Positions 21,922 through 24,266 are shown, counted from the stretch's first letter. The stretch is 64,000 nt of DNA from Alphaproteobacteria bacterium (GCA_024279475.1 JAJRRM010000124.1:3942-67941); one strand, 5' to 3'. The notes: a model not told the origin generated them from the sequence alone. Numbers and translations are program-made.

Positions 21922-22944
21922 TTAAATAGCAGAAGTAATAATCTGCTTCTGGATTAAGAGAATGCCAATAGTTAGCAACTTTTGTACAGCTTCTTCGAAC
22001 TGAGATAATTCTAAAGGGAGCCTATAGTCAGTAAAGGGCATTTTTATAGGCATATTTTGTGATTGAGGAAAAGGCCCCCATTTGGAAAACAAATCTTCAT
22101 CCATAATAGTACCAATTGAAATTGGAGGGAATGGTCCTTCTCCAAATTTATTAGGGTTAAATGGTTTGTTAAGATTTTGAACTAAACTACTCTCTCTATC
22201 AATTTCTATTTTTAAAATTCTTGGTCTGACATGAACACCCTTATCTGAAAATACATGTTTTAAGGTAAGCGGGCAGATTTGTCCTTTCTGTCGAGCTGAG
22301 CAAATAGCATCTGGGGCGTCAGTATCATACCAACAATCAAGGATATCTGGTTGATCTCTCCATTGGCAGATAGATTTCCGCTGCTCTACAGGTTTGCTTC
22401 TACAACTCAAACCTGCAAGTTCAAAACCTGTTATTTTTCTGGAGAAAGTTGAAGAGATCACATCTAAGGGGCAATGAGATACAAGTGTTTCTACCATATG
22501 AACATTTTTTAAAGAACAAATTAAAAAATAAAACGAAGCTGTCCAGCTGTTTCTTTCCTTAGTAGCATCATATAAATCTATTAAATTTCTTAACTTATAA
22601 CCAAGGGTTTCCCCATCATCATTAATAATATGTGCCGTCATAGTGTCTATATTCTCATCAGAATATTGAGGAAAAATATTTCTTAAAATATATGCCCAAA
22701 GTTTTTTGGCCGTATCTTGTTTATCAGTATCTTTTAATTGTACAATAGAAGACGCTGTAGAAAGATTTCTATCTGCAATTTCGCTTTCTCTATCTTCTCC
22801 AAAGATTGTTAATGATAATATAGGTTCTTTTTCTCCTAAATCATCAGGAATTTTACCACTATCGTTAGATGCTAATGATATATTAACAGCCAGTATATTC
22901 AATAATAATAAAAATATTTTAAAATATGATTTTTGTTCTACCAT
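21922..22944 (-). CDS. hypothetical secreted protein (340 aa)
   Basis: Signal peptide; Cys-rich C-terminal half; 7-bp overlap with the upstream transporter gene suggests an operon. Confidence 0.45.
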   Translation of the reverse strand: MVEQKSYFKIFLLLLNILAVNISLASNDSGKIPDDLGEKEPILSLTIFGEDRESEIADRNLSTASSIVQLKDTDKQDTAKKLWAYILRNIFPQYSDENIDTMTAHIINDDGETLGYKLRNLIDLYDATKERNSWTASFYFLICSLKNVHMVETLVSHCPLDVISSTFSRKITGFELAGLSCRSKPVEQRKSICQWRDQPDILDCWYDTDAPDAICSARQKGQICPLTLKHVFSDKGVHVRPRILKIEIDRESSLVQNLNKPFNPNKFGEGPFPPISIGTIMDEDLFSKWGPFPQSQNMPIKMPFTDYRLPLELSQFEEAVQKLLTIGILLIQKQIITSAI

Positions 22945-24266
22945 GATGTACTCCTAAGAGCCTTGTTTTTTGATTTTTTTATAAGAGATTGTGTAAGAAG
23001 CACTAAAAGTATTATTAATATGCAGCAAAAAATAATACTGGAAAAAAAATTATCCCATCCCCAATTTTTTACTATTAAAGCTAGTGGGTATCCAGAAATT
23101 GCAGCTCCAATATTACAAACAAAACCTCCAAAGCTATTAGCTGTTGCTGCATACGATTTTCTAATCATTTCTGATGTAGCAAGGCCAAAAACACTTTGAA
23201 ATCCAAATAATAGAAATCCTATAGTTCCCATAAAAAAATTATCGAGCATTACATAACCACCAGGGATGTTATAAAAAATAAATGTACTAACAAGAAGCAT
23301 CAGTGATAAACAAAAAGTTGCTGAAAATCTATTGCCTTTAAAAATAGTGTCAGATGCCCAACAAGCCACGACTCCACCCAATAAACCACCTAGCTCAAAC
23401 CATGAAACTGTCCCATTAGCTGCTATCATACTTTTATATTGTTTTGCTTCTATTAAATATAGAGGGATCCAATCATTTATAGCACTTCTAACTATATATA
23501 AAAATAATCCTGCTACGGAAAAAACAATCAAAGGAATATTAGTTAATATATGTTTTTTTATAACCTCTATGAGAGTTTCTCTTTTCTGTAGGAGTATATT
23601 TATACTTGTTTCTCGAGAAAAGTATTTTTCAATAGGAGGCAACCCTAAAGAAGTAGGAACATCACGTACAGTTAACGTCATTAACACTCCAATAATGATA
23701 CCAAACCCCCCAGAGAAATACATAGCCCAACGCCAGCTTAAATAAACAGAAATAAAACCCGCAAAAATAGGAATTAACCCAGCTCCTAAATTTTGACCAA
23801 CGCCACATAATCCCCACCATTTTCCACGTTCCTTCTTATCGCACCAAAATGTTAATAATTTAGTACATGTAGGCCAGGCAAAAGCCTGAGAAAAAGAGCT
23901 TACAACTAAACAACAGGCCATAATCTCAATAGAACTTGAAGCACCAAAAGCAATATTAGTAATACCAGAAATTACTAAACTTATAGAAAGAACATACCTC
24001 GCATTATAAGTATCAGATACGTATCCACATAATAGTTTGCTAACAGAGTATGTAATATAGAAAATTGTACTTAATAATCCAATTTGCGTTATTGAGAAAT
24101 CAAGATCAGATTTTAACCAAGGTATAATTGAAGAGAAAGATTTTCTGACAAAATGAAATGAGGCCCAACTAACAAAAATAGATAAAAATATATTACGTCT
24201 CCAATATTGATAATATTTTTTTTCATTTTTTAGAGCTTCAGCACTTAAAGATTCTTCCTTCTTCAT
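22938..24266 (-). CDS. MFS organophosphate:phosphate antiporter (GlpT/UhpC/UhpT family)
   Basis: 442 aa; N-terminal YWRR.IFLSIF..W..FHFVRKSF and central RDVPTSLGLPPIEKYF closely resemble GlpT RDTPQSCGLPPIEEY. Confidence 0.8.
   Translation of the reverse strand: MKKEESLSAEALKNEKKYYQYWRRNIFLSIFVSWASFHFVRKSFSSIIPWLKSDLDFSITQIGLLSTIFYITYSVSKLLCGYVSDTYNARYVLSISLVISGITNIAFGASSSIEIMACCLVVSSFSQAFAWPTCTKLLTFWCDKKERGKWWGLCGVGQNLGAGLIPIFAGFISVYLSWRWAMYFSGGFGIIIGVLMTLTVRDVPTSLGLPPIEKYFSRETSINILLQKRETLIEVIKKHILTNIPLIVFSVAGLFLYIVRSAINDWIPLYLIEAKQYKSMIAANGTVSWFELGGLLGGVVACWASDTIFKGNRFSATFCLSLMLLVSTFIFYNIPGGYVMLDNFFMGTIGFLLFGFQSVFGLATSEMIRKSYAATANSFGGFVCNIGAAISGYPLALIVKNWGWDNFFSSIIFCCILIILLVLLTQSLIKKSKNKALRSTSW

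Follow-up and report, generated by a model that had tools for sequence, protein, structure and literature searches.

A UhpC-type organophosphate:phosphate antiporter gene accompanied by a conserved kinase-like gene and a candidate STAND-type regulator gene in an alphaproteobacterial genome

The recognition of phosphate by the organophosphate:phosphate antiporters (OPA) of the major facilitator superfamily (MFS) has been described in residue-level detail for GlpT, in which R45, K80 and R269 serve as phosphate-binding and relay residues (PMC4598623), and for the human transporter G6PT, in which R28, K64 and K240 form the phosphate relay and cryo-electron microscopy structures with bound glucose-6-phosphate (G6P) are available (PMC12552596). 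Genes of the UhpC type have been repeatedly gained by endosymbionts (PMC11257099, PMC9816063), and UhpC-type transporters represent a recurring acquisition in intracellular bacteria, usually read automatically as devoted to the uptake of G6P. The present work deals with a gene of this type occurring in a stretch of 64,000 nucleotides from an Alphaproteobacteria bacterium (GCA_024279475.1 JAJRRM010000124.1:3942-67941), referred to hereafter as the window. The gene, located on the minus strand at 22938..24266, consists of an intact open reading frame (ORF) for an OPA-family MFS antiporter of 442 amino acids (aa). On balance, we lean towards the view that it encodes a working exchanger of the UhpC branch, belonging to a small mobile module of three genes together with a STAND-type regulator and a kinase resembling the choline kinases and the aminoglycoside phosphotransferases (APH); its substrate is most likely a sugar phosphate or a cyclitol phosphate.

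The family assignment relies on concordant comparisons. Pfam MFS_1 matches residues 35-391 of the transporter (1.8e-46), residues 19-426 align with GlpT (1PW4, the closest solved structure by sequence; E 1.8e-53) and residues 18-424 with human G6PT (E about 1e-44 to 1e-45), the 12-helix MFS fold being alignable over its full length with these solved members of the OPA family. In the central loop, the motif RDVPTSLGLPPIEKYF of the transporter stands opposite MRDTPQSCGLPPIEEY of GlpT. These matches bear out the assignment to the GlpT/UhpC family proposed in an earlier note on this DNA, which had also correctly placed this ORF and a second, minus-strand ORF of 340 aa (21922..22944). Among the NCBIfam models, that of the UhpC subfamily (NF008661) scores best with 353.7 bits, below its cut-off of 564 bits, ahead of the generic OPA model TIGR00881 (294.8 bits, cut-off 407.75), the GlpT models NF008433 (229.6 bits, cut-off 748) and TIGR00712 (222.4 bits, cut-off 632.55), the UhpT model NF007107 (156.8 bits, cut-off 497) and the PgtP model NF047787 (147.4 bits, cut-off 750), none of these curated cut-offs being reached. 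The identity amounts to 35% with E. coli UhpC, 28% with GlpT and 24% with UhpT. The protein is thus predicted to be an intact OPA/MFS exchanger of the UhpC type, and not a GlpT, UhpT or PgtP.

An alignment of E. coli K-12 GlpT, UhpT and UhpC with 65 database relatives of the transporter was used to build a neighbour-joining tree, a simple distance tree whose references are devoid of PgtP, chlamydial HPT (HPTcp) and Listeria Hpt. In this tree, the window transporter and two close relatives, P0002 and P0003, are monophyletic in 100/100 bootstraps, and the trio occupies a long branch within the UhpC-like group, from which E. coli UhpT and GlpT are separate (72/100 bootstraps). With respect to the placement among the GlpT, UhpT, UhpC and PgtP clades envisaged in the earlier note, the grouping with UhpC-like sequences as against UhpT and GlpT is therefore recovered, PgtP being set apart by its NCBIfam score only. 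Among 5.8 billion protein clusters, only P0002 and P0003, with 62% and 61% identity, respectively, are more than 42% identical to the transporter. The remaining relatives share ~37-42% identity with it; among them are proteins of Chlamydiales, Parachlamydiaceae and other metagenome-assembled genomes (MAGs) that bear the name UhpC-like. The transporter is accordingly of a known kind, in a distinct sub-branch characterized by a gene partnership that has not been reported.

The residues devoted to phosphate in this sub-branch are conventional. R41, K77 and R260 of the transporter occupy the positions of GlpT R45, K80 and R269 and of G6PT R28, K64 and K240, they are also present in both close relatives, and the phosphate-subsite residues Y73 and W131 are similarly retained. 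The residues lining the rest of the cavity follow another pattern. In the window clade, the position of GlpT Y38 is occupied by W and that of Y42 by H, both being Tyr in 45/45 other UhpC-like sequences; H165 is replaced by Q (Q158; His in 43/46 other UhpC-like sequences) and Y393 by N (N385; Tyr in 44/46). The positions of the two glucose contacts S142 and Y233 of G6PT correspond to Gly residues, G155 (N, S or A in 46/46 other UhpC-like sequences) and G253 (Tyr in 33/46). All of these changed positions are common to the three members of the clade. In the window transporter, C154 occurs at the position of GlpT W161 and, together with Q158 and N385, takes the place of the GlpT-type pocket (H165, W161, Y393); the UhpC-like set of cavity residues is equally lacking (Y38W, Y42H, H165Q, Y393N, G155, G253), and the D388/K391 pair of UhpT corresponds to N377 and G380. 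W151 and Q357 match the pattern of UhpC and G6PT. An early equation of GlpT W161/H165 with G6PT W138/S142 was dropped, since the alignment maps these G6PT residues to W151 and G155. As judged from the alignments, the handling of phosphate would be standard and the cavity accommodating the organic moiety altered, probably roomier. Such a combination of a standard phosphate machinery and a remodelled pocket suggests that the substrate is probably neither plain G6P nor plain glycerol-3-phosphate (G3P).

The two genes that accompany the transporter were overlooked in the earlier reading of the locus. The same gene order, a divergent NB-ARC/TPR gene followed by a kinase-like gene and the transporter gene, occurs in the window, in the contigs L001-L004 (which encode P0003) and in L005 (which encodes P0002). 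In these related loci, the NB-ARC/TPR orthologues are ~49% identical to the 1165-aa ORF of the window and occupy an equivalent position, and the kinase-like genes encode proteins of 389-426 aa, devoid of any Pfam match and 59-64% identical to the product of the window ORF 24337..25530. The wider surroundings differ: leuS and an arginase gene in L001-L004, a CYTH gene and recR-dnaX in L005, a tRNA-Gln gene and atpHAGD in the window. The conservation of this order in three different surroundings indicates that the module moves as a unit and does not correspond to a syntenic housekeeping gene. In this respect, the objection foreseen in the earlier note, a housekeeping GlpT shared with close relatives at a syntenic location, does not apply, the transporter not being a GlpT and its two close relatives being non-syntenic. 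Nothing resembling the 340-aa ORF occurs downstream of the transporter in L001-L005; the transporter gene runs into recR in L005 and, in L001-L004, into an rRNA-like sequence (judged from spurious ORFs), after which the assemblies diverge. The four long metagenome contigs L001-L004 share the module and then, at about 11300-15000, pass into unrelated high-GC sequence. Their divergence after the rRNA-like stretch is suggestive of chimeras with a junction at an rRNA operon, and the context to the right of the transporter is therefore not trustworthy in these contigs.

The kinase-like gene (24337..25530, minus strand), whose stop lies 70 bp upstream of the transporter start, encodes a candidate small-molecule kinase of a rare family, with a predicted protein-kinase-like fold and a length of 397 aa from a TTG start or 390 aa from an ATG at 25509. 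The protein has no Pfam or NCBIfam match even at E 5 and belongs to neither of the curated APH and Choline_kinase families; PDB sequence searches with the partner proteins returned chance-level matches only. Its family consists of 9 clusters among the 5.8 billion protein clusters, to which genome and metagenome scans add a handful of members from Omnitrophota, Microgenomates and Patescibacteria MAGs. Across 9 family members, the GGSSA loop, K37, H235-G-D237-x4-N242 and D255-x-R-G are invariant; such a combination of a glycine-rich loop, an ATP-anchoring Lys, a catalytic loop and a metal-binding Asp is the signature of catalysis in proteins with a protein-kinase-like fold. The AlphaFold2 model (predicted local distance difference test, pLDDT, 88.4) displays a bilobal kinase fold, and its best Foldseek matches in the PDB are choline kinase and APH(3')/APH(2''), with E 9e-05 to 1e-03, a probability of 1.0 and template modelling (TM) scores of 0.4-0.6.

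The distribution of this kinase family outside the module is informative with respect to its chemistry. A fourth homologue, 66% identical, occurs in L010, where the order is OPA transporter (38% identical to that of the window), ROK, kinase. In Omnitrophota, the kinase domain is found at the C-terminus of giant proteins, fused with RmlD-like and ROK domains, and elsewhere the neighbours of the family comprise GHMP or PfkB kinases, 3-deoxy-D-arabino-heptulosonate 7-phosphate (DAHP)-synthase-like and 3-dehydroquinate (DHQ)-synthase-like (sugar-phosphate cyclase) proteins, a phosphomutase and NUDIX proteins. Throughout, the contexts of the family are those of sugar-phosphate or cyclitol chemistry, and four lineages combine it with an OPA transporter. 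Two Omnitrophota MAG loci, L014 (6035-11470) and L020 (417-5324), encode proteins of 1635-1811 aa built up from an N-terminal region without assignment, an RmlD-like reductase, a ROK domain and the kinase domain; these giant fusions offer a pointer to the pathway of the kinase.

On the opposite strand, the divergent gene (25758..29255, plus strand) encodes a candidate STAND regulator of 1165 aa, composed of a possible N-terminal LuxR-like helix-turn-helix (HTH), an NB-ARC domain (Pfam 9.1e-09) and a TPR array (TPR_12, 9.4e-49). Conservation among the three loci is strong over the first 80 residues, of which residues 23-76 are aligned by hhalign with the LuxR-type HTH of E. coli UhpA at a weak E of 0.055; no Pfam match and no PDB sequence match were obtained for this N-terminal HTH. 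A STAND-type transcription factor would be the natural reading of such an architecture. The segment located between the N-terminal domain and the NB-ARC domain contains the GC minimum of the window, 20% over 1 kb at 26000-27000 (plus strand).

The divergent intergenic region separating the regulator and kinase genes (227 bp, 25531..25757) is presumed from the gene geometry to be the control region of the module; sigma-70-like matches are no more frequent in it than in shuffled sequence. On the minus strand, the kinase gene is followed after a 70-bp gap by the transporter gene, which overlaps by 7 bp a pseudogene, itself separated by a 68-bp gap from a gene for a glycosyltransferase-like protein. 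No terminator-like site occurs on the minus strand of this gene run, and the short gaps together with this lack of terminator-like sites suggest co-transcription. In the scan for promoters and terminators, sites were no commoner than in shuffled sequence, and co-transcription is neither supported nor contradicted by it beyond the missing terminators.

The pseudogene deserves a closer description, because the earlier note had taken its front part for a gene encoding a secreted Cys-rich protein forming an operon with the transporter gene. The overlap reported there is present (ATGGTAG), and AGGAG occurs 6 nt before the second ATG. The 340-aa ORF (21922..22944, minus strand), held in the public record as a separate protein, is nevertheless the 5' fragment of a decayed gene (21479..22944, minus strand) for an Fe(II)/2-oxoglutarate (2OG)-oxygenase-like protein with a Cys cluster, as delineated by three-frame translation, by the DNA itself and by tiling on the homologues P0112 and P0113. 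These homologues (414 aa and 561 aa, respectively) and 24 others from an exhaustive search match the 340-aa ORF only to about residue 324, every match listed (26 family representatives) ending at query residue ~320-325, and the full-length homologues extend ~170 residues beyond this point. A 1-bp deletion in the A-run 21980-21983, where the caaaag following ...QFEEAVQ contains 4 A's instead of the 5 needed, shifts the reading frame. The shifted frame reads KVANYWHSLNPEADYYFCYLS...QRRGHLHSDGFQS...MDSYTLHKA...RTFLRFI and then meets an in-frame TAA (21578-21580), at a position occupied by Phe or Tyr in the homologues; beyond it, SPIRWDRKGNGHNPMFDYNWSMVERNMMDQLT leads to the ancestral stop at ~21479. 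The three pieces tile the full length of both P0112 and P0113. As the gene carries two independent lesions, and a substitution is one of them, a genuine pseudogene is more plausible than a sequencing error in a homopolymer. Programmed frameshifting was considered and rejected, since the separate in-frame TAA follows where the homologues possess Phe or Tyr.

The 340-aa ORF has no Pfam or NCBIfam match, even at E 5, and no Pfam model exists for its family. The AlphaFold2 model of P0112 (pLDDT 88.9) matches the Fe(II)/2OG dioxygenases SptF, FtmOx1, EvdO2/EvdMO1, KanJ and CytC3 (E 1.6e-04 upward), the C-terminal half being the part that resembles PhyH-like dioxygenase folds. It also matches many viral 2OG oxygenases, with Orpheovirus and jumbo-phage proteins among the fold matches; no relative of the family was found in viral contigs. 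The residues H286, D288, H362 and R375 (P0112 numbering), i.e., HxD...H...R, are near-invariant in the family, and intact homologues possess both the HxD...H triad and the 2OG-binding Arg. In the window, the corresponding motifs GHLHSD, YTLHKA and RTFLR occur only in the shifted frame, the 340-aa ORF ending before them; its product would accordingly be devoid of the catalytic core, which lies downstream of the frameshift. The richness in Cys is real but mild: seven Cys (2.06%) exceed the mean of 0.97% among the 31 large ORFs of the window and remain below their maximum of 2.49%. These seven Cys cluster at residues 143-224, and five of them are conserved in the homologues. The N-terminal hydrophobic segment does resemble a signal peptide or a membrane anchor in its hydropathy, but it is absent from P0112, and P0113, which starts at a contig end, is uninformative as to its conservation. 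The downstream "secreted protein" is thus an artefact that gene decay has introduced into the annotation.

The same-strand run ends with a gene (20052..21410, minus strand) for a protein of 452 aa with an N-terminal membrane helix, which weak scores and motifs suggest to be of the GT-A/GT2 glycosyltransferase type. The window protein has no Pfam or NCBIfam match even at E 5 and an E of 0.045 against the N-terminus of E. coli ArnC, and Glycos_transf_2 gives E 0.18 in P0129, a 900-aa protein to whose residues 237-585 the window protein is 28% identical (E 1e-32); the GT2-like motifs VVIPIYKE, IDDG, TDAD and DTQVGFK were read by eye. P0129 successively contains a Nudix-box-like N-terminus (by eye; no Pfam NUDIX match), the GT2-like domain, the Cys cluster and the oxygenase domain. 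The last 50 residues of the window GT2-like protein match a linker motif, W..SF..LI.SL...CP.EI...ITAFEL; conservation in the oxygenase family begins with this motif, which in P0123 is located ahead of the Cys cluster. In the fused homologues, the motif leads on into the oxygenase domain; the GT2-like gene ends within it and may thus be truncated too. The idea that this gene and the pseudogene represent the two halves of a split fusion was rejected, their order being reversed with respect to P0129 and each possessing its own linker motif. P0129 itself is found on single-gene contigs (L025 and L026) of ~3 kb and 49% GC with untranslated flanks, which look transcript-like and perhaps eukaryotic.

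Intact genes of the oxygenase family were recovered in three genomic contexts, L006, L027 and L028, all of which contain AP_endonuc_2 and NUDIX genes. In L006 they are accompanied by four GFO/IDH-type dehydrogenases, a myo-inositol-1-phosphate synthase, an archaeal-type S-adenosylmethionine (AdoMet) synthase and an inositol monophosphatase, other phosphatases being absent. L027 similarly contains four GFO/IDH-type dehydrogenases and an inositol monophosphatase, together with a Y_phosphatase, and is devoid of the myo-inositol-1-phosphate synthase and the AdoMet synthase. L028, in which two GFO/IDH-type dehydrogenases are seen before the end of the locus, comprises the myo-inositol-1-phosphate synthase, the archaeal-type AdoMet synthase and a His_Phos_1 phosphatase, and lacks the inositol monophosphatase; an integrase adjoins this cluster. 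Neither the kinase nor an OPA transporter occurs in L006, L027 or L028, which appear to represent a recurrent and undescribed type of cluster.

According to the mechanism we propose, the regulator would sense a ligand and switch on the kinase-transporter pair. Across the inner membrane, the antiporter would swap inorganic phosphate for a sugar-like compound in phosphorylated form, the likely direction in an intracellular bacterium being uptake of this compound from the host cytosol, and the kinase, a cytoplasmic protein in this view, would act on the same compound or on a close derivative. In free-living relatives, a ROK sugar kinase would supply the substrate of the kinase. The oxygenase-like and GT2-like genes downstream belong to another pair of families, whose chemistry is at least partly lost in this genome, the oxygenase gene being a pseudogene now. 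Co-transcription, the transport direction, the functional link between the kinase and the transporter, and the kind of substrate are inferred elements of this scheme.

A more specific version of this scheme would make the module a cyclitol-phosphate system, in which the antiporter exchanges phosphate for a carbocyclic sugar phosphate, of the inositol type or another, and the kinase phosphorylates the cyclitol. It is suggested by the kinase family, which adjoins DHQ-synthase-like cyclases and DAHP-synthase-like enzymes, and by the oxygenase/GT2-like family, which sits in clusters with GFO/IDH-type dehydrogenases and AP_endonuc_2 in all three contexts (a myo-inositol-1-phosphate synthase in 2/3 and an inositol monophosphatase in 2/3 of them). 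We know of no cyclitol phosphate among the substrate classes of the OPA family, and we regard this version as rather unlikely. Were it true, the intracellular bacterium would draw a phosphorylated cyclitol from its host in finished form, without synthesizing it.

Among the explanations that compete with a three-gene module, the most serious is that of an ordinary scavenger of host G6P, comparable to the chlamydial HPT/UhpC, the kinase and the regulator being coincidental or loosely related neighbours. The earlier note favoured the scavenging of G6P or G3P, which is conceivable; owing to the changed binding pocket and the kinase partner, it is not the best-supported guess as to the substrate. 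UhpC is indeed the best family model, the transporter groups with UhpC-like sequences including those of Chlamydiales and Parachlamydiaceae MAGs, W151 and Q357 fit the UhpC/G6PT pattern, the window combines other effector-like genes with an alphaproteobacterial core, and the gain of UhpC is a recurrent trait of endosymbionts (PMC11257099, PMC9816063). Against these arguments, the long branch, with an identity of at most ~40% to all other UhpC-like proteins, the score far under the curated UhpC cut-off, the replacement of the invariant or nearly invariant Tyr38, Tyr42 and His165, the Gly residues at both glucose-contact equivalents, and the presence of the kinase and the regulator in all three clade members despite their different surroundings make plain G6P scavenging the less probable, though by no means remote, alternative. 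It is decidedly improbable that the whole cluster is the decaying remnant of an acquired island, with a transporter already non-functional or in the course of being lost: two lesions are present in the adjacent oxygenase gene, the GT2-like gene is possibly truncated and the catalytic match of the recombinase-like ORF at the right of the island falls below the Pfam cut-off, but the transporter, the kinase and the regulator are full length with respect to their homologues and retain all the invariant or catalytic residues checked. We give very little credence to a membrane sensor like E. coli UhpC, signalling to the neighbouring regulator rather than performing bulk transport. Its appeal comes from E. 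coli UhpC being the closest named family and from the adjacent regulator gene; unlike in the uhpABCT layout of E. coli, however, no UhpA- or UhpB-type two-component gene, and more generally no histidine kinase, response regulator or second OPA gene, is found among the neighbouring ORFs inspected, the regulator is a soluble STAND-type protein without any evident membrane-coupling domain, and all the residues of the transport relay are intact. E. coli UhpC itself, moreover, reportedly still transports G6P (Schwöppe et al. 2002). An operon in which the transporter works with a functional secreted Cys-rich protein of ~340 aa is scarcely credible either. The 7-bp overlap with AGGAG before the ATG would suggest translational coupling, and the signal-like N-terminus and five conserved Cys would be in keeping with it, but the ORF stops at the frameshift, with the remainder readable downstream and containing a further nonsense codon, the catalytic HxD...H comes after the break, P0112 has no signal-like N-terminus, and the gene is missing downstream of the transporter in L001-L005.

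The view of a working exchanger in a three-gene mobile module, which we retain, meets with difficulties of its own. The placement in the UhpC-like group is carried by a moderate bootstrap (72/100) in a distance tree without PgtP, HPT and Hpt references; several of the changed pocket positions vary elsewhere, e.g., an Asn occurs at the Y393 position in human G6PT, and the residue found at N377 is present in 14/46 UhpC-like sequences. The clade of transporters comprises three members, so that 3/3 is a small sample which may reflect shared ancestry and not selection, and the kinase adjoins the transporter in only 4 of the ~14 lineages of the kinase family. It is not obvious what single logic would place a kinase beside a transporter of already phosphorylated compounds, statistical support is lacking for the HTH of the regulator, and the decaying neighbour gene shows that the locus is not under uniformly strong selection.

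Concerning the genomic setting, the module lies in a low-GC region that the earlier note had already described as an island. The region from 16.2 to 39.8 kb has a GC content of 31.6% as against 36.8% for the core, and it extends between a tRNA-Gln gene (16129..16202, plus strand; ARAGORN) at its left edge and a weak tyrosine-recombinase-like ORF (37595..38641, plus strand) near its right edge, which matches Phage_int_SAM_1 (2.2e-08, passing the Pfam cut-off) and, for its catalytic domain, Phage_integrase at 2e-04, below the Pfam cut-off. The atpHAGD genes are located immediately to the left of the tRNA gene, the GC content dropping to its right, and core genes (pgeF-like, Methyltransf_28, lgt and rfaD-like) resume at 40291. 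The members of the module have GC contents of 26% (regulator), 28.7% (kinase) and 32% (transporter); this low GC content, together with the tRNA gene and the integrase-like ORF at the edges of the island, points to a horizontal origin. No direct repeat of the 3' end of tRNA-Gln, nor any att-like repeat, was found to delimit the island; the label of "island" is reasonable, with borders that are not sharply defined. The ATP synthase beta chain has mitochondrial and Paracoccus chains as best matches; this result and the order of the atpHAGD genes suggest an alphaproteobacterium, probably an intracellular one.

Other genes of the window deserve mention. To the right of the tRNA-Gln gene, the segment 16843-18153 (plus strand) contains a Gly/Ser-rich ORF of 319 aa with deaminase-like HSE ... 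PCDSC motifs (by eye) and, 3 bp after it, an ORF of 115 aa with a signal-like N-terminus; neither matches Pfam, and the two may represent a deaminase toxin/immunity pair. They are followed at 18401-19879 (plus strand) by a hipB-like HTH ORF (92 aa, by eye) and hipA (HipA_C 1.7e-46, Couple_hipA 1.1e-15), a toxin-antitoxin pair convergent with the GT2-like gene. Beyond the regulator, a Sel1-repeat protein (29434-30552, plus strand; Pfam 1.5e-55) exhibits five 108-nt tandem units and a signal-like N-terminus. A 75-nt element occurs in two 88% identical copies (30731-30805 and 34050-34124) upstream of both large orphan genes (960 aa and 1091 aa), for which it may serve as a common control region. 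The 1091-aa orphan (34166-37441, plus strand) has no Pfam match, its C-terminus resembles by eye an OTU-type cysteine protease (CPTKADGDCFFHAV), and it may be a eukaryote-directed effector. A 95-nt segment from the 5' coding region of the 960-aa gene (31031-31125) recurs, with 89% identity, at 37506-37600, just ahead of the recombinase-like ORF and extending into its first codons, a sign of rearrangement. A second MFS transporter, matching MFS_1 and Sugar_tr and not belonging to OPA, is encoded at 9485-10690 (plus strand) in the core region to the left of the atp genes.

The sub-branch is marked by a standard phosphate site, a rebuilt cavity and a constant association with an uncharacterised kinase and a STAND-type regulator. 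If the kinase-transporter pair handles a host organophosphate other than G6P, the OPA family would have a wider range of substrates, the list of the host metabolites taken by endosymbionts would grow, and a first functional handle would become available on two rare families devoid of Pfam models, namely the kinase and the Cys-cluster oxygenase, the latter often fused to a GT2-like domain. Both families otherwise occur in sugar-phosphate cyclase or inositol clusters of uncultured organisms, among them Omnitrophota and candidate-phyla-radiation bacteria.

Compared with the known systems, the transporter stands closest to the UhpC/HPT-type transporters (the sensor UhpC of E. coli, HPTcp of Chlamydia pneumoniae; TC 2.A.1.4), with which it shares the best family model, the group in the distance tree (72/100 bootstraps), the R/K/R relay, Y73, W131, W151 and Q357, as well as the theme of an acquisition by intracellular bacteria. 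It differs from E. coli UhpC by an identity limited to 35%, a score of 353.7 as against 564 bits, the replacement of Tyr38, Tyr42 and His165, the Gly residues at the two glucose-contact equivalents, and its partners, a kinase-like gene and an NB-ARC/TPR regulator gene in place of UhpA and UhpB. With the G3P:phosphate antiporter GlpT of E. coli, the central-loop motif and the residues R45, K80 and R269 are common, whereas the identity falls to 28%, the positions H165, W161, Y38, Y42 and Y393 are all changed and the two proteins are separate in the tree. Human G6PT (SLC37A4) similarly aligns over the full length and possesses the same phosphate subsite, the same K-R-K/R relay and, in its sugar subsite, a W138 equivalent to W151; in contrast, S142, Y233 and H366 of this subsite correspond to G155, G253 and N377.

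The partner proteins likewise combine familiar and unusual traits. The kinase resembles choline kinase and APH in its glycine-rich loop, its Lys, its HGDxxxxN motif and the Asp of the metal-binding loop, but belongs to a separate, very rare family, is 10-15% identical to them and exhibits extra inserted elements in its model. The candidate regulator follows the STAND regulators of the MalT/AfsR-like type in having an NB-ARC NTPase followed by a long TPR array, a divergent position and a conserved occurrence in the related loci; it differs from them in that its candidate DNA-binding domain is N-terminal and only weakly LuxR-like, and is called as a separate small ORF in the relatives. Finally, the ancestral oxygenase-like gene recalls the PhyH-like Fe(II)/2OG dioxygenases acting on natural products or sugars (SptF, FtmOx1, EvdO2/EvdMO1 and KanJ) in the C-terminal fold of the P0112 model and in the HxD...H...R residues, whereas its family is distinguished by the lack of a Pfam match, an added helical N-terminal region with a five-Cys cluster and a frequent fusion to a GT2-like domain, and the window copy, unlike these dioxygenases, is broken upstream of the metal ligands.

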